Assembly: GCA_030647355.1 (NCBI GenBank)
Contig: JAUSIS010000013.1
Coordinates: forward strand, 48,353-112,352
From: a bacterium
GTDB taxonomy: Bacteria > Patescibacteriota > UBA1384 > VFKW01
Reading direction: 5' to 3'
DNA length: 64,000 bases
In this document: positions 1,660 through 60,474 of the stretch, piece by piece
Numbering within the stretch: the stretch's first letter is position 1
How the letters are laid out: each line of letters begins with the position of its first letter
Program-made: the position numbers and the translations under genes
The notes under the pieces: model-generated
Database searches by the model: none
What the model was told of the DNA's origin: nothing
Seen by the model: only the letters and a program-made list of their open reading frames with translations

Positions 1660-2482
1660 AAACGATACATCCTAAAATTATTACTGACGAAAATATTGTT
1701 TTCCAACTCACTCTCTCCTTGAAATACTTCGCCGAGATCATATATAGAATGATAGGCGATGCGATTAAAAACAAGGTAGTTTTTACTATCCCAAAATCCT
1801 TATAACCATAAAACCGAAAAATCATATATGCCGCCCCCATTACCGCAGAGAGTACCGTAAGCTTAACATTTTCCCTGGAAGCTAAATTAAAATGCGGCCG
1901 AAAAACAATCACGTAGCACAAAAAAACAAAACCCGTTCTGAAAGCGTATAAGCTGACCGGCGAATAAACCTTAAGTAGTTCATTGATTACAATTGCCTCA
2001 ACTGCCATTAAAAATACAGCGATTAAGAGATTTACCGAATAACTATTGAATTGAAAATGCCCTTTCTCTATTTTTGCCGCTATAAGGAATATCCCAGCCA
2101 CAATCGCAGCAATAAATACACGAATATCAACTTGAGTCGGAGAGTAAATAGACGCTAATATTATCGTGGCCAATGGCGCAAGCATTATAATCATTTCGTG
2201 CTCATGTAACTTTTCCTTCTGGATACTCACTGACGCCAGATAATTCCAAGTCACAGCTAAAAAAATCATCGTGATGAAGAGTATCAAATATTTTGGCTGA
2301 AATACTAATGCATGATCAACTGCCCCCAGAAAAGGCGTAAGTAGTGCCGATATAAAAAAAATAAATAAGAAAACTAGTGATAGATAAAGACCTATCGACA
2401 TTCGTTTCCTTGCTAAAACAATCTTATCTATAGTAAGACCTAATGTATTAGCTACCATAGCAACTATAGGAATGAGAAACAT
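1628..2482 (-). CDS. integral membrane protein, DMT/EamA-like (about 10 TM)
   Basis: 284 aa, almost entirely hydrophobic helices in a duplicated 5+5 arrangement. No catalytic motif recognised. Confidence 0.4.
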   Translation of the reverse strand: MFLIPIVAMVANTLGLTIDKIVLARKRMSIGLYLSLVFLFIFFISALLTPFLGAVDHALVFQPKYLILFITMIFLAVTWNYLASVSIQKEKLHEHEMIIMLAPLATIILASIYSPTQVDIRVFIAAIVAGIFLIAAKIEKGHFQFNSYSVNLLIAVFLMAVEAIVINELLKVYSPVSLYAFRTGFVFLCYVIVFRPHFNLASRENVKLTVLSAVMGAAYMIFRFYGYKDFGIVKTTLFLIASPIILYMISAKYFKERVSWKTIFSSVIILGCIVYVSYIDSLSH

Positions 2483-7586: not shown

Positions 7587-7720
7587 GTTAGGAGATTATT
7601 CATTGAGCACCTATCACAGGCGAGCAAGCTTGGTGTCGCTTCAGTGACTTGCGAGCCGAGGTAGAGAGGCAATTTTCGCTGGAAAAATTGAACGCGTGTG
7701 CTCAAGAATAATCTCCTAAC
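7587..7720. repeat. TIR-flanked dispersed repeat, copy A (about 134 bp) in the ksgA 5' region
   Basis: 23-bp terminal inverted repeats: gttaggagattattcattgagcac at 7587-7610 and gtgctcaagaataatctcctaac at 7698-7720. The core is about 80% identical over about 95 bp to 44374-44507 (shared caattttcgctggaaaa-ttg-acgcgtg). Confidence 0.55.
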
Positions 7721-8856: not shown

Positions 8857-9780
8857 CTACAACACTTTCTCTACACGAACCCTTGGAATAAGCCCTTGCG
8901 AAAGAGGAACTCCTAATGCTTCAAATGCTCCGGTAGATAAATCAATTACCCGATCGCCCCTTAACCCTCCACCCGAAGATGTCACTTCAATACTCTTACC
9001 ATTAGCCAAATTTGTAACCCTTAATCGCGTCCCTTTCGGCACCAAATTACAGGCACCGATCATTCGACTGGTTCTCACGTAATAACTCGCTACACCAGTT
9101 GCAACATTAGCAGTCAAGACTTTAGTTCCTCTTATAACCACTGCATCAACTACTTCTTTAATAATCTTATCACTTATCAAATCTTTAGAAACCAGCTTAC
9201 CATTTTCACGTCTTATCTGGTAAATACATTCCCGTAGACCATTCACCCCTGCCGTCTTTACTTTACTTTTACCTTTATCCAAACTAGGATCATTCTCATA
9301 AATCGTTTTGAAAGAAATTTTTGTATTCTCTGTAATTTGACTCTCGGTTACACGAATAATTTTCACTACTAAACTATTGGAAATATTAGTAGCTAAAGAA
9401 GGATTAACCAAATCTTTATCCCCAACCTCGATTGATTTCTCTTGAAATAAACCACCTACCGTGCCCGCCCAAGTCCGATAATTCACTTGTTCATTTCCAT
9501 CATAAACAATAACCGGAGTAGCTCTATGAATACTGATAATACTCCCCATCCCTAGTTCAGGATCGGGAAATAGCTTGACCTTATCTTCCGGATAAACCGT
9601 GACTTGCAAAGCATCGAGCATATCCCCTATTTTCCTGTATCTATCACTGCCCATATATGTTTCTTGGGGATGATTACTATCGCTCGCTGCTACAGCACCC
9701 AAAACAAAGCCCTTACCCGCAACTAAATCAGGCTGCTTTCCCCTATTAACAAAAAATAGAACGGCAAAACTGGCAATCAA
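8857..9780 (-). CDS. YabE-like protein (DUF348 + G5 + RlpA-like double-psi beta-barrel)
   Basis: N-terminal TM segment. The C-terminus ASYYVRTSRMIGACNLVPKGTRLRVTNLANGKSIEVTSSGGG...VIDLS is an RlpA/3D-type DPBB. It is a paralogous arrangement to the preceding gene and sits next to ksgA as yabE does in Bacillus. Confidence 0.65.
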   Translation of the reverse strand: MIASFAVLFFVNRGKQPDLVAGKGFVLGAVAASDSNHPQETYMGSDRYRKIGDMLDALQVTVYPEDKVKLFPDPELGMGSIISIHRATPVIVYDGNEQVNYRTWAGTVGGLFQEKSIEVGDKDLVNPSLATNISNSLVVKIIRVTESQITENTKISFKTIYENDPSLDKGKSKVKTAGVNGLRECIYQIRRENGKLVSKDLISDKIIKEVVDAVVIRGTKVLTANVATGVASYYVRTSRMIGACNLVPKGTRLRVTNLANGKSIEVTSSGGGLRGDRVIDLSTGAFEALGVPLSQGLIPRVRVEKVL

Positions 9781-9915
9781 ACAAAATATTATTATAATTC
9801 GAACTCGGTTTATATACCCTCCGAAAGCTACAAAACCAATATTACCAGTGACTTCAAAATAGTCAATAGTGTACTAGGGTAGTTCGCTAGCCCTCGCCTT
9901 GTTTCAGCATCACCG

Positions 9916-11796
9916 TTAATAATCTAGATTCTCTATCAAATGATTTGGAATATCATCAATAAATCGAGAGCGAAAATTTGTTTGCACCCCGCCATAGACA
10001 ATTCTAGTCAAAGCATAAGTCAGATATAACCGCTTCATCGCCCGGGTAATTCCTACATAACACAGGCGCCTCTCCTCCTCCAACTCATGTTCATCCATTA
10101 AGCTGCGAGAATGCGGAAAAATCCCCTCTTCCATTCCTGCTAAAAATACAGTCGGAAATTCTAAACCCTTTGCTGAATGCATAGTCATCAGAGTCACAGC
10201 ATCCGCACTTTCGTCATAACTGTCAATATCGGAAATGAGCGCCGCTTGCTCTAAAAATTCATCCAAATTATCCAATAAGCTAGCTACATTCATCAGTTCC
10301 TCAATATTTTCCCATCTCCCCTGCCCCTCAATTGTTCCGTCTAAAATAAAATTCTTATATCCTGTCATATCTAGAACTAATCTAATCAATTCGCCAACCT
10401 TCACGCCCTTTGATTTTTCCCGTAACCCTTCAATCATCTTCCAAAATATTTGGATCTTTGGATTTTCACTTTGAGATTTGTCCGCCAGCTGGCGGATTGA
10501 ATTTTGAGCTTTTGGTCCTATTCCTCTGGACGGAACATTAATTATCCGGCGCAGACTTACTTCATCAAGCGGATTGACTATCACCCTTAAGTAAGCCAAG
10601 ATATCCTTTACTTCTTTTCGATCATAAAAGCGAAGCGCCCCGATAACTTTATATGGCACTCGCAGTTTCAACAAACTCTCCTCAAATATGCGTGATTGGG
10701 CATTTGTTCTATATAAAATAGCAAAATCGTTCAAGTTCATACCAGCTTGGCGCAACGCCAACATCTCTGAAATAATAAATTCGCTCTCTTCCTCTCCCGA
10801 TCGCCCCTGAAATACAACAATTGGCACTCCGATAACGTTATCTGTCCATAAGTCTTTAACTGTCCTGTTTCTATTTTTCTCAATGATCATCTGTGCTGCT
10901 TCCAGAATGTTCTTGGTCGATCGGTAATTTTGCTCCAACTTAAATACTTTTGCATCGGGATAATCTTTTTCAAAATTCAAAATATTCTTAAAATTCGCTC
11001 CCCTCCATCCATAGATTGCCTGATAATCATCTCCAACAACACAAATATTATAATGTTTATCGGCTAAAAGTTTTGTTAATTTATACTGCGCCTCATTCGT
11101 ATCCTGGTACTCATCTATCAAGATATATTTGAAAAGGGATTGATATTTTTCCAACACCTCCGGATTATTCTCCAGTAGCAAAACCGTCTGCATGATAAGA
11201 TCATCGAAATCCATTGCCTGCGAAACTCTCAAAGCGCTTTGATACTCTTTGTACACTCGCGTCACTATCTCTTGAAAATGACCATTGGCATACTTCTCAT
11301 ACTCCCCGGGGCCTAAAAGCTCATTTTTCGCTCCTGAAATAAACGAAATAACCGCTTGTGGCGAATATTGCTTTATATCAATCCCTAATTTCTTCATTAC
11401 ATTCTTGGTCAAAACCAATGAGTCTTGGCTATCATATATAGAAAAATTCGAACTGAATCCAATATATTTTGCCTCCCTCCTTAAAATCTTGACGCATATC
11501 GAATGAAAAGTACCCATCCAAGGAAGCTTGGAAATCCCAGATTGCCCCGTACCTGGACGGGAAATCGCAAGCAGCCGATTAACTCGATCAATTAATTCAC
11601 GCGCTGCTTTATTGGTAAAAGTTATAGCTAAAATATGATATGGCGAGACTTTTTTCATTTGTATTAAATATGCCATCCGATGAGCCAAACATCGGGTTTT
11701 ACCACTACCGGCCCCTGCCAATATTAAAATCGGGCCATCCCCGGCAATGACTGCCTCTCGCTGTTTTGTATTCAACTCGTTAAGTAAATCCGACAT
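9916..11796 (-). CDS. pcrA: ATP-dependent DNA helicase PcrA/UvrD (compact form)
   Basis: Walker A motif GAGSGKTR and UvrD helicase motifs I-VI (DEYQDTN, QNYRST, TMHSAKGLEF). It contains the in-frame palindromic-element insertion at 10470-10511. Confidence 0.85.
   Translation of the reverse strand: MSDLLNELNTKQREAVIAGDGPILILAGAGSGKTRCLAHRMAYLIQMKKVSPYHILAITFTNKAARELIDRVNRLLAISRPGTGQSGISKLPWMGTFHSICVKILRREAKYIGFSSNFSIYDSQDSLVLTKNVMKKLGIDIKQYSPQAVISFISGAKNELLGPGEYEKYANGHFQEIVTRVYKEYQSALRVSQAMDFDDLIMQTVLLLENNPEVLEKYQSLFKYILIDEYQDTNEAQYKLTKLLADKHYNICVVGDDYQAIYGWRGANFKNILNFEKDYPDAKVFKLEQNYRSTKNILEAAQMIIEKNRNRTVKDLWTDNVIGVPIVVFQGRSGEEESEFIISEMLALRQAGMNLNDFAILYRTNAQSRIFEESLLKLRVPYKVIGALRFYDRKEVKDILAYLRVIVNPLDEVSLRRIINVPSRGIGPKAQNSIRQLADKSQSENPKIQIFWKMIEGLREKSKGVKVGELIRLVLDMTGYKNFILDGTIEGQGRWENIEELMNVASLLDNLDEFLEQAALISDIDSYDESADAVTLMTMHSAKGLEFPTVFLAGMEEGIFPHSRSLMDEHELEEERRLCYVGITRAMKRLYLTYALTRIVYGGVQTNFRSRFIDDIPNHLIENLDY
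10470..10511. repeat. palindromic element inserted in-frame in pcrA (encodes AQNSIRQLADKSQ)
   Basis: Perfect palindrome tccgccagctggcgga at 10481-10496. The surrounding stretch of about 42 bp is near-identical to 43717-43760 inside nifS. Confidence 0.6.
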
Positions 11797-12636: not shown

Positions 12637-12654
12637 ATCCGCCAGCTAGCGGAT
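12637..12654. repeat. palindrome family member (atccgccagctagcggat)
   Basis: 18-bp perfect palindrome with a gctagc centre, a variant of the ccgccagctggcgg family. It lies inside the 5' leader of the 12708 ORF. Confidence 0.5.
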
Positions 12655-24419: not shown

Positions 24420-24976
24420 TGCTAATTACTATCAATCTTCTGCCGCCAGAGCAAAGAAATAAAAAGACAGAGATTAAAAAAGGTGAAAAAATCTTTACCC
24501 TCAGTTTTACTATACTGGCGTGCACCGTAGCACTCTCAATTCTCTTATTTACATACAATACAACGATTAAACAGCAGCTTAACACGATTAACAGCCAAAT
24601 TTCCAGTGAAAATAGCAGACTCAATGATTACAAAGGCCTCCGTACTTCGCTAAATAACATGTCAAATACACTCATTTATATTGATACCATTGAGAAAAAG
24701 AGCATCAATTTAGAGAGTTTCCTGACACAATTCAGCAGTATAATACCTGAAAAAGCCCAAGTTACTTCGTTAGAGATCAGCGCCCTCCCCTCCCCTACCA
24801 TAGATATTTCCGGGAAAGCCGAATCTCGTACTGAAGTAATAAAATTATTTGAAAAAATGAAAACATCGCCTTTCTTCTCCGAACCGGAAATTAAAAGCCT
24901 GGACAAATCTGTAGATAAGGACGTAGCTAGTTTCCAATTTTCTATTTCTGCGAAAATTCTTCTGGAGAAATTATGA
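24419..24976 (+). CDS. pilN: type IV pilus assembly protein PilN
   Basis: MLITINLLPPEQRNKK (INLLP motif) followed by one TM helix. ggag RBS 8 nt upstream. ATG 24389 is the upstream in-frame alternative. Confidence 0.7.
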   Translation: MLITINLLPPEQRNKKTEIKKGEKIFTLSFTILACTVALSILLFTYNTTIKQQLNTINSQISSENSRLNDYKGLRTSLNNMSNTLIYIDTIEKKSINLESFLTQFSSIIPEKAQVTSLEISALPSPTIDISGKAESRTEVIKLFEKMKTSPFFSEPEIKSLDKSVDKDVASFQFSISAKILLEKL

Positions 24977-26866: not shown

Positions 26867-29203
26867 TTATTTTACTTGCTTAAGATAACTTTCCATCGGA
26901 TTCTTCACATCAATCTTATCAGCATCACTTGTCGTCGGCTTGGTTAGAACCGCCCCTTCCCCCTCAAAAGGATCGGCTGGTTTTTGGGAAACTATCGGCA
27001 AAGTGAATTTGAAAATTGCACCCTTACCTCCGCCAGCTGGTGGACTCTCAATCCATATTTTACCACTATGCAGCTCCACCAGTTTCTTGCTGATATAAAG
27101 CCCCAAGCCCGACCCCTGAAATTCGTTTTTTTCGCGATTGAGCTGGCTGAATTTTTTAAATAGTTTATCGGCATCCTCTTGCTTTATCCCCACACCCGTA
27201 TCCGATACTGTAAATTCGAGCGACCTGCCGTCAACCTTCGCCTCAATAGTCACTCCGCCTTTTTCCGTGAACTTGATCGCATTGCCTGCCAAATTAACTA
27301 AAACTTCGCGAATCCTATTTATGTCTATCCAAGTTTGCGGCAATTTATGCTCCGGCTTCTCAAATTTCAAATAAATCTTCTTCGCATTTGATTTTACGCT
27401 CAATTCATCAATAACGCTCTGAACCAATTCCTCCGGACCTATTTCTCCGTACATCAAATGAATTCTCCCCTGCTCGATTCTGGAGACATTTAAAAGATCG
27501 AGTATCAAAACCGCCAACCGTTTGCTGGATGCATAAACTCTATCCAAATATTCTTTGGCCGTAGCGTCAACTTTGCCCATTCCTTCATCCAAAATCATGC
27601 TTAAATAGCCCTGTATTGCCGCCAAAGGCGTATTCATCTCATGACTGGCAACCGAGATAAATTCGTCTTTCATCTGATCCAAATCCTTCAAGTAATCGTT
27701 CGCCTTCTTTAAATTTTCATACGCTATCGCTCTCTGGACAGCCAAGCTTACTTCGTTCGAAATGGCTGCCATCATACTGATCGCTTCGGTGGCAATATCC
27801 TCGATTGGATGTTTCAATCCATAAATGGCCACTCCGAATCTCTCATCCTTAGCTGATAACGGGATGGCAATCAGTCCTTTTATATCACTTTTTGTTTGAA
27901 GTTCCCTAGCTAGAGTCTTATCAAGCGGCGGCGACACAAAATCCGATAGGTTATTCCCCTTCTGTTCCTTTTGACTATGGTACGCCATCATAAGTAAGTT
28001 TTCACGGTTTTTCAGAGGAATGGCAGTCGAACGCACCACTTCCTTCCACTTATCCAAAAGCCCATCAGATAAATTAGTCTCGGACAGGGCATACCCCTTC
28101 ATCTTCTCACTCTCCTGGTCAACCAACGCCACTACCACTCCCATACATTCATCGATCTCCTTAGGAATGGTATTGATAATTTGCTGAATCATCGGCTTCA
28201 TCTCATTATTATCGAGGACTATATCAGAAAATTTCTGCAAAGTTGATAGATTTTTATTTCGCTCGTCAACTTCCTTGAGCGCCCTCTCCCTCTCCTTTGC
28301 CAGCGTCTCCATCTCCTCCCGCTGCTTGATTTCTTTTCTAACACTTCTTATCAACGAAAAACCACCAAATACCGCCAATAACCAGACAATACTCTTAAGC
28401 ATTCCCTCACCAACCGAATTAGATAAAAATACTTCGATCAAAAGACCAAGTGAAAGTAAGATTACTATAGTCTCGGTTGTAACTACTTTAATATCAAACA
28501 AACCTGTTTTTATTATACCGTAAGCTATAAATCCAACGAAAAATATTATTGAATAATTACCAATACGATAGAGCGACTGGTTATCTAGAATAATTGGAAT
28601 AGTGGTATTAAATAAGACCTCAAGAAGAACGAATATCCCAAAACCCAATAATAAGTATTTTAATTGAAGCTTTTTTATACCATAAGTATTAAAATAATTT
28701 CTCACGAAGATTATTAAAGAGGTTAGTAGTAAAATTAGTGAAAAAGGTAGAAATATTTGAAAATAAGCATTACTGGTGATTACATCAAAACCCCATTGAG
28801 TGTGCTTAATCCCCGTTGCAAAAAAAGAAGTAAAAACCGTAACTATAAATAAAATCGTGGCACAAATCAAAATGAATAAATTAAGAAGATTCACATAACG
28901 CGAAAGCTTAATATGAAATGGATAAACTAAAGAAAAGAAGTATAAAGTTATACACATCCCAACAACCGAACCAAAAGTAATTCTACTTAACAATAGCGTT
29001 ACCCACTCGTTTGTATTTACAAAAAACTCAGAAACATAGGCAGAAGAAACTATCAAACATGAAAATAAAGCAAATCCAATAAAATATTTATTAGCAATAT
29101 CTTTGGGATCTTTTAAATATACTACTAATCCTAAAAAGATACATGTGATACAAATAATTAATACACCAATTGATTCCATGTTCAGTAGTAATCCGGAAAT
29201 CAT
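26867..29203 (-). CDS. sensor histidine kinase with a multi-TM N-terminal sensor region
   Basis: About 8 N-terminal TM helices, then a coiled coil and a GAF/PAS-like region. HisKA H-box SHEMNTPLAAIQGY. HATPase_c N, G1 (DTGVGI) and G2 (GSGLGL) boxes. Confidence 0.8.
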   Translation of the reverse strand: MISGLLLNMESIGVLIICITCIFLGLVVYLKDPKDIANKYFIGFALFSCLIVSSAYVSEFFVNTNEWVTLLLSRITFGSVVGMCITLYFFSLVYPFHIKLSRYVNLLNLFILICATILFIVTVFTSFFATGIKHTQWGFDVITSNAYFQIFLPFSLILLLTSLIIFVRNYFNTYGIKKLQLKYLLLGFGIFVLLEVLFNTTIPIILDNQSLYRIGNYSIIFFVGFIAYGIIKTGLFDIKVVTTETIVILLSLGLLIEVFLSNSVGEGMLKSIVWLLAVFGGFSLIRSVRKEIKQREEMETLAKERERALKEVDERNKNLSTLQKFSDIVLDNNEMKPMIQQIINTIPKEIDECMGVVVALVDQESEKMKGYALSETNLSDGLLDKWKEVVRSTAIPLKNRENLLMMAYHSQKEQKGNNLSDFVSPPLDKTLARELQTKSDIKGLIAIPLSAKDERFGVAIYGLKHPIEDIATEAISMMAAISNEVSLAVQRAIAYENLKKANDYLKDLDQMKDEFISVASHEMNTPLAAIQGYLSMILDEGMGKVDATAKEYLDRVYASSKRLAVLILDLLNVSRIEQGRIHLMYGEIGPEELVQSVIDELSVKSNAKKIYLKFEKPEHKLPQTWIDINRIREVLVNLAGNAIKFTEKGGVTIEAKVDGRSLEFTVSDTGVGIKQEDADKLFKKFSQLNREKNEFQGSGLGLYISKKLVELHSGKIWIESPPAGGGKGAIFKFTLPIVSQKPADPFEGEGAVLTKPTTSDADKIDVKNPMESYLKQVK

Positions 29204-43047: not shown

Positions 43048-44372
43048 ATTTTCTCCTTATCGCTTCTAATTGCCGAGATACTCCTTAGACGTGAAACGAC
43101 AGATGGCAGTACCGCCAAGACATAATCTATATCTTGTTTAGTTGTCCTGCGGCCAAGACTAAACCTTAAACTACCATGCGCTCCCTCATGTGACAAACCA
43201 ATTGCCTTCAAGACATGAGATGGCTCCAAACTATCAGAATTGCACGCCGAACCCGTTGAAACAGCTATCCCTTCCTCGTCAAGCATCAGCACCATCGCCT
43301 CCCCTTCTACACCATAAAAACTAAAATTAGCATTTCCCGGCAATCTATTAACCTTTGAGCCATTTAAACCGGTGTTGCTTATCCGAGTCAATACCCCATC
43401 AATCAGATAATCACGTAATTTTGCTAATCGGGCAGACTCCCCTGTCCTCTCTCTGTCAGCTATCTTGAGCGCTTCCGTAAACCCGACAATCCCTAGAATA
43501 TTCTCTGTTCCACTTCTTAATCCACCTTGCTGACCACCGCCAAAGATAACAGGTTGTATCTTTACCCCATTTCGCACATACAAAATCCCTATACCCGTCG
43601 GGCCATAAATCTTCGTGCCATTCGAGGTTAACAAATCAACATTTAACCTGTTAACATCCAAATCTAAATATCCAGCGGCTTGACAAGCATCGGTATGAAA
43701 ATATATCTTTCCATTATTTTGAGATTTGTCCGCCAGCTGGCGGATTGATTTTTGAGTTTTCAGCCAATTACCAATTTCGGCGATTGGCTGTACTGTTCCT
43801 ATCTCATTATTGGCATACATTATCGAAATTAAGATGGTTTCAGGTCGAATAGCCTGCTTTATATCTTCTAATTTAACCAGCCCATCCTTATCCACCGGTA
43901 GATATGTAACTTCAAACCCCTCTGATTCTAACTGTTTACAGGCGTTAAGCACAGCATGATGCTCAAATTGAGTAGTAATAATATGCCCTTTACATCTAGA
44001 TTCTGAATTCTGGAACATGGAATTAAGTTTGGAATTTTGAACATCAGAATTTTGGATTTGTTTAGAATTTAGAATTTCGGATTTAGAGTTTGCTCTGGCC
44101 ACCCCCAAAATTGCCAGATTATCACTCTCAGTCCCTCCGGAAGTAAAAACTATCTCATCGCTTTGGCAGTGGAGTATCCAGGAAATTTCCGTCCTGCAGT
44201 CACCTATTTTATCCCTTGTCGCCCTTCCTCTTGTATAAATACTAGACGGATTACCGTAACCTCCCTTTAAATAAGGTTCCATCGCCAAAAATACTCTCTT
44301 ATCGAGAGGTGCCAAAGCCGCATGATCTAAATAAACTTCTCTTCTTTCCATCTTTCCCTCATCATTACTCAA
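43044..44372 (-). CDS. nifS: cysteine desulfurase (NifS/IscS) with two in-frame insertions
   Basis: PLP-dependent class V fold. The active-site loop SGSACNS (catalytic Cys) is present. TTG start with an open frame. Contains a low-complexity insertion (43995-44095) and the palindromic element (43717-43760). Confidence 0.85.
   Translation of the reverse strand: MSNDEGKMERREVYLDHAALAPLDKRVFLAMEPYLKGGYGNPSSIYTRGRATRDKIGDCRTEISWILHCQSDEIVFTSGGTESDNLAILGVARANSKSEILNSKQIQNSDVQNSKLNSMFQNSESRCKGHIITTQFEHHAVLNACKQLESEGFEVTYLPVDKDGLVKLEDIKQAIRPETILISIMYANNEIGTVQPIAEIGNWLKTQKSIRQLADKSQNNGKIYFHTDACQAAGYLDLDVNRLNVDLLTSNGTKIYGPTGIGILYVRNGVKIQPVIFGGGQQGGLRSGTENILGIVGFTEALKIADRERTGESARLAKLRDYLIDGVLTRISNTGLNGSKVNRLPGNANFSFYGVEGEAMVLMLDEEGIAVSTGSACNSDSLEPSHVLKAIGLSHEGAHGSLRFSLGRRTTKQDIDYVLAVLPSVVSRLRSISAIRSDKEKI
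43717..43760. repeat. palindromic element inserted in-frame in nifS (encodes TQKSIRQLADKSQ)
   Basis: tccgccagctggcgga at 43729-43744. Near-identical to 10470-10511. Confidence 0.6.
43995..44095. repeat. degenerate GAATTT-type microsatellite-like tract inside nifS
   Basis: Repeats of gaatt(t)tgga / agaattt. It encodes the low-complexity peptide SKSEILNSKQIQNSDVQNSKLNSMFQNSESR inside the NifS fold. Confidence 0.5.
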
Positions 44373-44373
44373 A

Positions 44374-44507
44374 GGTGAACTGTTTTATCGAAAGGTCTTT
44401 CGCAGGTGAGCAAGCATGGTTCCGCCAACTGGCGGATTGCGAACCGAGAATGAGCGACAATTTTCGCTGGAAAATTGTACGCGTGCCTTGAGATAAAATA
44501 TTTCACC
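44374..44507. repeat. TIR-flanked dispersed repeat, copy B, filling the nfu-nifS intergenic space
   Basis: Inverted repeats of about 22 bp: ggtgaactgttttatcgaaagg and ccttgagataaaatatttcacc. Core about 80% identical to copy A (7587-7720). Carries the palindrome variant tccgccaactggcgga at 44421-44436. Confidence 0.55.
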
Positions 44508-44726
44508 CTACACCGCCCTCAACTCCTTAAATCCCTTCATCTTCTCAGTCAAAAGTTTCTCAACCCCCATTTTAAGAGTTATAGAAGCCATCGGACAACC
44601 ATTACATGCTCCAATCAAATGAACCTTAACAACCCCGTCTTTTAGCTCAACTAATTCAACATCTCCTCCATCGGCCTGCAAACTCGGCCTTATCTCATCT
44701 AATATCTTTTCCACATCTTCATGCAT
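44508..44726 (-). CDS. NifU C-terminal-domain (Nfu-type) Fe-S carrier protein
   Basis: CxxC motif GACNGCPMASITLKMGVE. Confidence 0.7.
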   Translation of the reverse strand: MHEDVEKILDEIRPSLQADGGDVELVELKDGVVKVHLIGACNGCPMASITLKMGVEKLLTEKMKGFKELRAV

Positions 44727-52817: not shown

Positions 52818-53040
52818 CTAAATTTATTCTTCGAGTGTCGAACCGTGCGGAACAAAACTTATTCTTCGAGCGATCGGACTGTGCGGAAACTAAATTTATT
52901 CACCGAGCAGTCGAACACTACGGAAACTAAATTTATTCTTCGAGCGATCCGCCAACTGGCGGAAACTAAATTTATTCACCGAGCAGTCGAACACTACGGA
53001 AACTAAATTTATTCTTCGAGCGATCCGCCAACTGGCGGAG
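52818..53040. repeat. degenerate 37-38 bp tandem repeat array (about 6 units) upstream of the giant surface protein gene
   Basis: Units share the core aaactaaatttattc(tt/ac)cgag plus a 22-nt variable part. Two alternating unit types give a 76-bp super-period. Two units carry tccgccaactggcgga (52948-52963 and 53024-53039). Confidence 0.7.
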
Positions 53041-59001: not shown

Positions 59002-60474
59002 TCACTTCTCCAGCTTCGTAATCGCGTCTTGAATACGTTTAAGAGACCTCTCCTTACCCAGCACGCTCAAGAGCTCAAAAACCCCGGGCGACGCTTTCTC
59101 GCCGGTCAAGGCCACTCTAATCGGCCACAGAAGTTCCCCATTGGTAATTTTCAACTTTGCAACTGTACCAATCAAGGTTTTTTCCAGATTATCAGGTCCG
59201 AATATTTCAATCTCTTGGAGTTCGGCTAGCCCCGCCTTTAAATAATTGGCAATATCGCTTTTTTTAGCATTCTTAGGAACCAAGAGTTCAGCGTCATAAT
59301 TTAAATCATTACCAAAAAAGTAATGTGTCAGTTCGCAAATCTCATCTAATCTTTTCATTCTCTCTTGAACCATACTTACTGCCTGCAATAAATATTCCGG
59401 CTTTGCTTGTGCTTCGATAAATGCGGCAGGATTGCATTTTTCCATAAATGGCAAACATAAGTTTGCTAAATCGCCAATCTTCTTCTGTCTTATATAATAA
59501 CCATTGATATAATCGAGTCTTTGAATATCAAATATTGCCGGACTCTTACTTACCTTATCCAGCGAAAATTCTGTCTCTAAATCCCCTAAACTAAAAATCT
59601 CTTTATCATTTGCCGGATGCCATCCTAAAAGCGCCATAAAGTTAATCATTGCCTCGGGTAGATACCCTTTATCGCGGAAATCTTCTGTTAGCGACGCCGG
59701 ATTTTTTCTTTTTGAAATCTTAGATTTATCAGGATTCAAAATTAATGGTAGATGCCCATACTCAGGAGCCATAAGACCAAGCGCCTTAAACAAAAGCAAC
59801 TGCTTAGGAGTATTAGATAAATGATCTTCAGCCCTAAGCACGTGAGAAATTTTCATTAAACTGTCATCAATTAAATTTGTCAGTAAAAATAATGGATTAC
59901 CATCTGATCCGACGATGACAAAATCACCGAATAAGGACATATCAAACTTCATTGGTCCTTTTATCAAGTCATCAAACTCAATAACTTCATCGCTTACTTT
60001 GAACCGTATAGCTGGCTTCTTCCCCTCCTTTGTCAATCCGGCAATATCGCTTTCACTAAGGCCGCGGCATTTGCCCGAATACTTCGGCATCTGGTGAGCT
60101 TTTTCCTGCTTTTCTCGCTCCTCTGCCAGCTCTTCTTGACTGCAGAAACAATAATATGCATCTTTGCTCTCCGCCATCCGATCAATAAATTCCTTATAAA
60201 TCTCGGCTCGTTCGCTTTGACGATAAGGTCCATACCGGCCATCGCTCATCGGTCCCTCATCCCAAGAAAGCCCAAGCCAAGATAAGCCCTCTAGAATATC
60301 AATTTCCGATTCCGGAGTTGACCTGACTTTATCAGAATCTTCTATGCGCAAAACAAATTTACCACCAAATTTCTTAGCAAAAAGATAATTAAAAAGAGCT
60401 GTCCTAGCCGATCCGAAATGTAATTTTCCGGTTGGAGAAGGCGCAAACCTCACTCTTACTAACTCGTCCATCAA
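59002..60474 (-). CDS. gltX: glutamyl-tRNA synthetase
   Basis: RFAPSPTGKLHFGSART (HIGH-type) and KISKR (KMSKS-type) motifs. Confidence 0.9.
   Translation of the reverse strand: MMDELVRVRFAPSPTGKLHFGSARTALFNYLFAKKFGGKFVLRIEDSDKVRSTPESEIDILEGLSWLGLSWDEGPMSDGRYGPYRQSERAEIYKEFIDRMAESKDAYYCFCSQEELAEEREKQEKAHQMPKYSGKCRGLSESDIAGLTKEGKKPAIRFKVSDEVIEFDDLIKGPMKFDMSLFGDFVIVGSDGNPLFLLTNLIDDSLMKISHVLRAEDHLSNTPKQLLLFKALGLMAPEYGHLPLILNPDKSKISKRKNPASLTEDFRDKGYLPEAMINFMALLGWHPANDKEIFSLGDLETEFSLDKVSKSPAIFDIQRLDYINGYYIRQKKIGDLANLCLPFMEKCNPAAFIEAQAKPEYLLQAVSMVQERMKRLDEICELTHYFFGNDLNYDAELLVPKNAKKSDIANYLKAGLAELQEIEIFGPDNLEKTLIGTVAKLKITNGELLWPIRVALTGEKASPGVFELLSVLGKERSLKRIQDAITKLEK

Follow-up and report, generated by a model that had tools for sequence, protein, structure and literature searches.

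Two intercistronic copies of a previously uncatalogued hairpin-shaped repeat family in CPR bacteria with a conserved three-way-junction core

The stretch of DNA analyzed here, referred to as the window (64 kb of a Patescibacteriota contig), contains two copies of a short structured element, both surrounded by genes on the minus strand. Copy A (7587-7720) is located between an RpfB-like G5/SLT gene and ksgA, 6 nt past the stop codon of the former and 54 nt ahead of the start of the latter. Copy B (44374-44507) is located between nfu and nifS, starting directly past the nfu stop codon (44508-44510), and its other end is about 22 nt from the ATG at 44351 that probably starts nifS. A sequence-only reading of the window had given these coordinates, which are right, and had described copy B as filling the nifS/nfu gap, which it does from the nfu stop codon to this short distance before nifS. 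The same reading had placed both copies directly upstream of a minus-strand gene start; the positions agree, but both copies are actually intercistronic. In the following, the strand carrying CAATTTTCGCTGG is called the pattern strand, and in both window copies this strand is antisense to the operon.

Each copy is composed of an outer stem (P1) and two inner arms (P2 and P3). Each copy has its own inverted arms of 22-24 nt. In copy A, the 5' arm of P1 (GTTAGGAGATTATTCATTGAGCAC; 7587-7610, 24 nt, plus strand) pairs with the 3' arm (7698-7720, 23 nt, plus strand), which is its exact reverse complement except for one bulged A. The P2 arm (7611-7664, plus strand), assigned from the minimum-free-energy fold and from the covariation described below, is built from P2a (CTATC/GGTAG), a 3x2 purine loop (ACA/GA), then GGC/GCC with a tandem GA/GA loop and GCAAG/TTGC, and it carries the bulge CTTGGT (7629-7634, plus strand) and the tip hairpin P2c (7635-7648, plus strand). 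The P3 hairpin (7670-7690, plus strand) reads CAATTTTC-GCTG-GAAAAATTG and includes an exact 17-mer in common with copy B. In copy B, the 5' arm of P1 (GGTGAACTGTTTTATCGAAAGG; 44374-44395, plus strand) pairs with the 3' arm (44486-44507, plus strand), which abuts the minus-strand nfu stop codon (44508-44510), and the 22-nt arms form 18 Watson-Crick pairs with one G-T, one C-T and a tandem GA/GA mismatch. Its P2 arm (44398-44450, plus strand) has the purine loop GCA/GA and the bulge GCATGGT, and its P3 hairpin (44458-44477, plus strand) reads CAATTTTC-GCTG-GAAAATTG. The palindrome TCCGCCAACTGGCGGA, which had been reported as carried by copy B, is the tip hairpin P2c of this copy (44421-44436, plus strand), and it occupies the position of similar GC-rich tip hairpins elsewhere, such as TCCCGCCAGGTTGGCGGGA in L028.

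When the two copies were compared, the arms turned out to be unrelated in sequence, as the sequence-only reading had noted for the inverted repeats, and the cores between the arms were identical in 66 of 92 columns (72%). The core alignment scored 35; 1000 shuffles gave a mean of -11.6 (sd 4.4) and never exceeded 4. The cores contain a 38-nt block that is 84% identical. An identity of 80% over about 95 bp had been claimed for the core; this value holds only when the variable tip hairpin is left out, the full cores being 72% identical. The 17-mer CAATTTTCGCTGGAAAA is exact in both copies and absent from the rest of the window. Weak matches to it at 24599, 49653 and 59555 are not copies; two of them were inspected and are ordinary sequence, and that at 59555 lies within the gltX coding sequence. 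Both copies fold far better than shuffled sequences (z = -6.0 on the plus strand and -4.4 to -5.9 on the minus strand), in line with the RNA fold check that had been recommended, and the family covariance model detects them at 78-83 bits (E about 1e-18 to 1e-20). With the covariance models run with filters off, no third copy was found in the window, the next-best match reaching 13 bits. The P1 arms of copies A and B have no other match in the window, where guide-RNA targets were searched, and the guide-RNA idea was rejected for this reason. The window also contains a different short palindrome, which lies in frame inside genes in an RPE-like placement.

Copies A and B are confirmed to belong to a family of hairpin-shaped repeats that lies between genes in many CPR bacteria and had not been catalogued before. 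Including 13 further intact copies from other CPR/Patescibacteria assemblies, among them Yanofskybacteria and Spechtbacterales MAGs, 15 intact copies are available, and the earlier description as a dispersed repeat is borne out by copies in related as well as distant CPR genomes. To collect these members, public collections were scanned for the P3 sequence. In the genome collection, one Yanofskybacteria MAG and one Spechtbacterales MAG contained copies, the metagenome collection gave 47 matches (about a dozen true members and about 35 chance matches in coding DNA), and the exact P3 17-mer had no match in IMG/VR viral contigs. A covariance model (R1) was then built and refined as R2; the model recovers all members at 50-103 bits, and in L045, L047, L025, L054, L056 and L063 it found further copies in which the search pattern is absent. 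The collection scans demanded the exact P3 sequence, and therefore the invariance of P3 among pattern-derived matches is an ascertainment artefact, and evidence for covariation in P3 comes only from the copies found later by the model. Assemblies break at family elements in L001, L021 and L045. An Rfam scan had also been recommended, and no family matched at gathering or relaxed thresholds: Rfam 15 gave no match over the window at gathering thresholds, none on copy A at E up to 10 and none on four other members at E up to 1, and near copy B it gave chance matches only. Literature searches for such a repeat or RNA motif in CPR bacteria returned nothing relevant.

Folding and alignment of the members gave a common architecture for elements of about 133-170 bp. 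The outer stem P1 is near perfect, with 15-31 contiguous pairs, and its sequence is different in every copy; that is, among the 15 intact copies from unrelated assemblies the pairing of P1 is conserved and its sequence is not. P1 leads into a three-way junction carrying P2 and P3. P2 is made up of P2a, a 3x2 purine loop (5'-G(C/G)A opposite 5'-GA), P2b, a 7-nt bulge (GCNNGGU) and the tip hairpin P2c, which is variable and mostly GC-rich, and P3 is a hairpin with the loop C-GCUG-G. Together, P2 and P3 form a non-palindromic conserved core of about 95 nt, which is 35-78% identical between copies. A pseudoknot between loop and bulge (AGC with GCU) was considered and dropped because GCAG or ACUG loop variants occur without compensation, and kink-turn, tRNA-like, tmRNA-like, REP/RAYT and attC readings were rejected on motif order or geometry.

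The fold is supported by covariation. In P2, all 20 pairs change on both sides and stay paired among 22 copies, and 385 of the 426 paired cells are Watson-Crick. In P3, at least 8 different complementary stems occur beneath the conserved CGCUGG loop, including CGAUUUUC/GAAAAAUCG, GUUCAC/GUGAAC, GCUUAC/GUAAGC, AAAAUCCC/GGGAUUUU, GAAUUCC/GGAAUUC, AAAUCGCC/GGCGAUU and GCUUUUC/GAAAAGC, and the loop itself stays GCUG, rarely GCAG or ACUG. For the whole structure the covariation score was 0.64, compared with 0.19 for shuffles and 0.09-0.18 when the partner strand was slid. At some syntenic sites the copy has persisted through deep divergence with fully compensated stems, which argues that the fold is under constraint.

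As to the strand on which the structure acts, some observations favor the pattern strand and others give no strand signal. The conserved unpaired bases are purine-rich on the pattern strand only (G(C/G)A opposite GA, GCNNGGU, CGCUGG and the tandem G-A loops), and in 15 of 20 copies the fold of the pattern strand is more stable than that of its complement. Few G-U pairs occur, no more than A-C mismatches (9 versus 9 among the 426 P2 cells), and single mismatches in whole elements comprise 6 G-U and 3 A-C among 1153 Watson-Crick pairs. With G-U equal to A-C at 9 each, a strand call from wobble pairs is uninformative, and because there is no excess of G-U over A-C, the helices would form equally on either transcript or in DNA. 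The GC skew of the window is strongly negative regardless of gene orientation, and copies A and B both have the pattern strand on the C-rich strand, as do 12 of the 16 loci scored; this count is confounded with gene orientation and was not usable as evidence for a replication-strand bias.

Relatives were compared at the two sites, the syntenic contigs being reached through KsgA homologues. In L054 and L056, with KsgA 63-65% identical, a copy lies in the G5/SLT-ksgA gap and is likewise antisense. The P1 arms of these copies have the outer GTTAG and inner T(T/K)GAG in common with copy A (GTTAG and TTGAG), and the middle part differs, its pairs remaining complementary. GCA_040961635.1 is a more distant relative (KsgA 48% identical) in which the gene order is the same; its gap is 5 bp long without a copy, and a copy lies one gene further along, between uvrD and the first G5 gene. 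L054 carries copies in three consecutive gaps within 12.6 kb. The nfu and nifS genes overlap in L060, which comes from the same sample as L054 and so probably from the same organism, and they are 13 bp apart in GCA_040961635.1, with no element in either. Since neither relative examined has an element at the nfu/nifS site, copy B is lineage-specific, and given the tight ancestral nfu/nifS junction it is most simply explained as a gain. A look for empty sites had been proposed together with the sequence-only reading, and such sites exist: nfu/nifS in two relatives and G5/SLT-ksgA in one. Site occupancy thus differs between relatives, which indicates gain or loss over time.

Further observations also point to turnover. 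L045 and L047 contain tandem arrays in which some copies are truncated; the L047 array adjoins a tRNA-Glu gene, and the L045 array includes fragments of that tRNA. Core identities do not track site orthology. The L056 copy is a mosaic whose P1 matches the same-site copy of L054 and whose core is 78% identical to the copy between ksgA and Nramp in L054, and copies A and B have an identical P3 apical stem-loop, of which the copies at the site of copy A in L054 and L056 carry compensated variants. From this mosaic, and from the P3 that A and B share, unlike the copies at the site of copy A, we infer that exchange (gene conversion) between copies inside one genome has probably taken place.

The genomic setting of the family is diverse. 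Genes beside other members encode topoisomerase I, a class I aminoacyl-tRNA synthetase, an amino-acid permease, GalT, a thioredoxin-reductase-like enzyme, GT2, a CAP-domain protein and a DHH phosphoesterase, that is, unrelated housekeeping functions. The element has been seen only between genes, within or beside transcription units and in either orientation, and the orientation relative to neighboring genes varies: in L025 two inverted copies lie between convergent genes, and in L050 a single copy lies between divergent ones. In copies A and B and in the copies of the syntenic contigs, the element begins 0-10 nt after the upstream stop codon. No sigma-70-like promoter was detected at either window copy by consensus scan, and no intrinsic terminator (GC-rich hairpin with a T/U tract) on either strand of either window copy. 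Among 17 copies scored there was no -10 box at a fixed distance, -10-like hexamers lying 0-24 nt upstream of P1, and a dedicated promoter was rejected because of these inconsistent distances and the negative consensus scans. None of the 20 copies inspected with flanks has a target-site duplication, no conserved flanking cleavage tetranucleotide was found, and the P1 sequences of the 20 copies examined are all different, so that arms shared for recognition by a transposase are not seen. Neither the Pfam-scanned ORFs of the 64-kb window nor the neighbors of the other copies include a transposase, integrase or reverse transcriptase. The suggestion of a classical MITE is therefore not supported, in that the arms differ per site, there is no target-site duplication and no transposase lies nearby or among the scanned window ORFs, and further in that the copy between the rpfB-like gene and ksgA has been kept with compensated arms where KsgA is only 63-66% identical. 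What the family does have in common with MITEs is dispersed copies and presence/absence differences between related genomes.

We propose that the elements are non-autonomous, structure-selected intergenic repeats of the ERIC/Correia/bcr1/RPE kind, which are co-transcribed in operons and form a stable intercistronic processing or stability hairpin, and we assign this reading a probability of about 45%. According to this proposal, elements are gained at new intergenic sites over evolutionary time, build local clusters and arrays, and decay to fragments. The window copies lie inside operons running from the G5/SLT gene to ksgA and from Rrf2-nfu to nifS-nifU, and judging from their placement both would be transcribed within the operon mRNA as the reverse complement of the pattern strand. 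Co-transcription is suggested because the elements follow stop codons by 0-10 nt without a promoter or terminator. Between the cistrons of the mRNA, a hairpin with a predicted stability of -48 to -60 kcal/mol would be formed, and by analogy with ERIC, Correia/NEMIS and the intercistronic hairpins of phage T7 it may serve as a module for mRNA processing or stability. A duplex of at least 20 bp is a plausible target of RNase III, which cuts stems of this kind. Three observations count against this proposal. First, the mRNA would contain the complement of the purine-rich strand, which is the less RNA-like of the two. Second, the small number of G-U pairs fits a structure at the DNA level equally well. 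Third, a specific three-way-junction core that is conserved across CPR orders exceeds what a simple hairpin needs.

The second of these points leads to the alternative that fares best, which we still consider unlikely: the element would act at the DNA level, as a folded single strand or cruciform that is the substrate of a trans-acting HUH/Y1 transposase or another structure-specific recombinase. As for REP/RAYT and the IS200/IS605 PATEs, the enzyme would recognize the bases conserved in loop and bulge and would place new copies elsewhere. Almost exclusive Watson-Crick pairing without a bias to G-U is in keeping with this, and so is a variable stem with conserved loop and bulge bases, which is the pattern known for hairpin-recognizing enzymes such as IS608 TnpA, the RAYTs and attC/IntI. 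Sites gained and lost between relatives, the co-orientation of neighboring copies in L054, L045, L047 and the window, and the mosaic L056 copy, with the P1 of one L054 copy and a core nearer to another, also favor it, as does the pattern strand on the C-rich strand at 12 of 16 loci, though with the confounding by gene orientation mentioned above. However, no such enzyme lies next to any copy or among the scanned window ORFs, neither a conserved flanking cleavage tetranucleotide nor a target-site duplication is present, P1 differs per site, unlike REP or IS200/605 ends, the R-box order of attC does not occur, and one site has long retained its element, with compensated stems.

Somewhat less probable again is that the copies form a multi-copy family of genes encoding a stand-alone structured non-coding RNA (an RNP component, a guide-like RNA or a ribozyme). 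The pattern strand would then be the functional RNA, and processing of the P1 stem, for instance by RNase III, would free the three-way-junction core from longer transcripts. The one-strand conservation of unpaired purine-rich bases (tandem G-A loops, GCNNGGU and CGCUGG), the greater stability of the pattern strand in 15 of 20 copies, the strong covariation and the conservation of the core across CPR lineages all argue for such an RNA. A sequence-free stem of at least 20 bp around a conserved core also resembles the processing stems of rRNA. Against this stand the negative promoter and terminator scans, copies wedged into operons 0-10 nt past stop codons and in both orientations, the occurrence of arrays and of copies that are truncated or degenerate, the variable site occupancy between relatives, the lack of a G-U excess over A-C, and P1 arms without another match in the window, so that no guide target is seen. 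In a broader form, which we regard as similarly doubtful, the core would represent a CPR-wide class of functional structured RNA, such as an RNP scaffold, a self-processing RNA or a tRNA-end-binding RNA. This core may be embedded in a sequence-free processing stem, multiplying and moving between intergenic "sockets". Finally, ksgA and the Fe-S cluster operon might be controlled by a common cis-regulatory 5' leader, either riboswitch-like or protein-binding. The sequence-only reading had suggested a shared leader from the position of both window copies directly upstream of a minus-strand gene start, but this is highly improbable, because the mRNA strand is the complement of the strand with the conserved purine loops, other members lie beside unrelated genes in both orientations and some between convergent genes, nifS in two relatives has no element at its junction with nfu, and ksgA in GCA_040961635.1 has none either.

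The proposal of a co-transcribed intercistronic hairpin places the family near several known repeats. ERIC, Correia, bcr1 and RPE repeats are co-transcribed and some of them alter mRNA decay, ERIC being reported to alter the decay of flanking mRNA, and stable RNA folds with compensatory changes have been predicted for bcr1 and the RPEs (review PMC3184786, Table 1 for the folds). Like the present family, ERIC/IRU (about 127 bp) is a small imperfect palindrome that is found intergenically in transcription units in either orientation, its copy number varies between genomes, and its hairpin is kept by compensatory change. The two differ in that there is no sequence similarity, and ERIC copies share terminal repeats and a TA flank, whereas in our family the outer stem differs at every site, duplication is absent and the core is a non-palindromic three-way junction; the hosts also differ, with ERIC in Enterobacteriaceae and our family in CPR bacteria. 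The hairpin and mRNA-decay features of ERIC were reportedly described by Wilson and Sharp in 2006. The Correia/NEMIS elements of Neisseria (MITEs of about 104-157 bp) are similar in size and intercistronic location, and their terminal inverted repeats form a long hairpin when co-transcribed, as is proposed for the family; according to De Gregorio et al. in 2002/2003, this hairpin is said to be an RNase III substrate. In contrast, the conserved 26-bp terminal inverted repeat, TA duplication, IHF site and promoters of Correia elements were not found here. The bcr1 repeats of the Bacillus cereus group (about 155 bp) and the Rickettsia palindromic elements (RPEs; about 105-146 bp) are lineage-wide and conserved in structure, and both are retained at orthologous sites, as in our family. 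However, bcr1 has a TTTAT duplication and high identity between copies, compared with the 35-78% core identity found here, and RPEs insert into coding sequences, whereas our element has been seen only between genes.

A second group of known systems resembles the family in a different respect. In REP/BIME with RAYT, in the PATEs of IS200/IS605 and in attC sites, the structure and a few unpaired bases are conserved and the stem sequence is not, and attC sites also lie directly after stop codons. However, REPs are 20-40 nt long with a conserved GTAG, PATEs share their ends with the parent IS, and no partner enzyme was seen for our family. In attC, the boxes follow the order R''(RYYYAAC)...R'(GTTRRRY); copy A has GTTAG...CTAAC, which is the reverse order, and attC-type boxes are absent from copy B and most other copies. 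Integron attC sites were therefore rejected on the reversed box order in copy A and on the neighbors, which are syntenic housekeeping genes.

In conclusion, small structured intergenic repeats are a known kind of element, and neither an Rfam entry nor a literature description was found for this family. The family also differs from the known repeats in that an outer stem that is site-specific and sequence-free is combined with a three-way-junction core that is conserved and non-palindromic, and in that it spans several CPR lineages. The genomes of CPR/Patescibacteria are very small and tightly packed, with short intergenic gaps. The element, at 135-170 bp, is unlikely to be neutral filler, because it is tolerated in essential operons of such compact genomes, its fully compensated helices have persisted through deep divergence, and it occurs in several CPR lineages. 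With no Rfam match, we believe that the family is a good candidate for a new entry in the catalogue of RNA families. In addition, it may offer a handle on the post-transcriptional processing of operons, or on a mechanism of mobilization, in CPR bacteria that are not yet culturable alone. A functional RNA class, which is the minority reading, would if true be considerably more interesting than a hairpin repeat, since the elements would then form a mobile family of structured-RNA genes, rather than a passive repeat, in some of the smallest bacterial genomes.

In addition to the hairpin-shaped intergenic element represented by copies A and B, the window carries a second family of dispersed palindromes, with the core TCCGCCAGCTGGCGGA, which is unrelated to that element. 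A 43-nt version was found at 10470-10512 and again at 43718-43760, the two being 95% identical, and further copies are located at 27029-27054 and at positions 12638 and 13834. At least three copies lie within long ORFs, which encode UvrD (9916-11796), a histidine kinase (26867-29203) and NifS. The copy within nifS contributes about 8 in-frame residues (SIRQLADK) to the protein which are missing from relatives, and in this respect it is similar to the Rickettsia palindromic elements, which are also in-frame insertions. The nifS gene contains a second in-frame insertion at about 43990-44080, consisting of about 28 low-complexity residues (SEILNSKQIQNSDVQNSKLNSMFQNSESRC), and three relatives do not have it. 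Since the NifS homologues of CPR bacteria range from 380 to 467 aa in length, insertions of this kind are suggested to be frequent in CPR NifS.

Another repeat, an intergenic tandem array, was observed at 52818-53039, with a period of 37 or 76 nt (about 5.6 or 3 copies, respectively), and it terminates with two copies of the palindrome TCCGCCAACTGGCGGA. It is flanked by the gene for a 1383-aa fn3 surface protein on one side and by that for GTP cyclohydrolase I on the other, and no CRISPR- or TIGR-associated genes were found near it. As for strand composition, a strongly negative GC skew, with values from -0.05 to -0.28, extends throughout window 1-64000, including 17-26 kb, where the genes are carried by the + strand. 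The + strand is therefore C-rich across the entire window and is presumably the lagging strand. The coding strand changes near 17.2 kb, where dnaX is followed by the type IV pilus genes, and the sign of the skew is unchanged there.

We also compared the A/B element and its sites in other contigs. In two relatives, whose KsgA proteins are 59% (L057) and 63% (L059) identical, the sequence upstream of ksgA is different and is not recognised by the covariance model of the A/B family. The former contains an insert of 240 nt (9761-10000), which forms a long hairpin of its own (z = -2.8), and the latter has GC-rich hairpin repeats at the contig end (1-191). In L056, a syntenic relative with an element at the site of copy A, this element (1178-1276) is a mosaic when compared with two copies of another such relative, L054 (3364-3462 and 4390-4490). 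In the outer stem it agrees with the same-site copy of L054, but in the core it shares only 60% identity with that copy, against 78% with the L054 copy from the adjacent intergenic gap, which hints at gene conversion between element copies.

Full and truncated elements of the A/B family also occur in tandem arrays, at 2100-2440 of contig L047 and 1-700 of contig L045. Because the former adjoins a tRNA-Glu(UUC) gene (2364-2439, minus strand) and the spacers of the latter hold pieces of the 3' end of this tRNA, it is suggested that local duplications have occurred repeatedly at a tRNA locus. L001, an independent Logan contig of the same organism, ends at about window position 7697, precisely where the core of copy A meets its 3' arm, and the contigs L021 and L045 also terminate within elements. 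Short-read assemblies are broken by these repeats, which may hint at additional near-identical copies of the element elsewhere in the genome of this organism.
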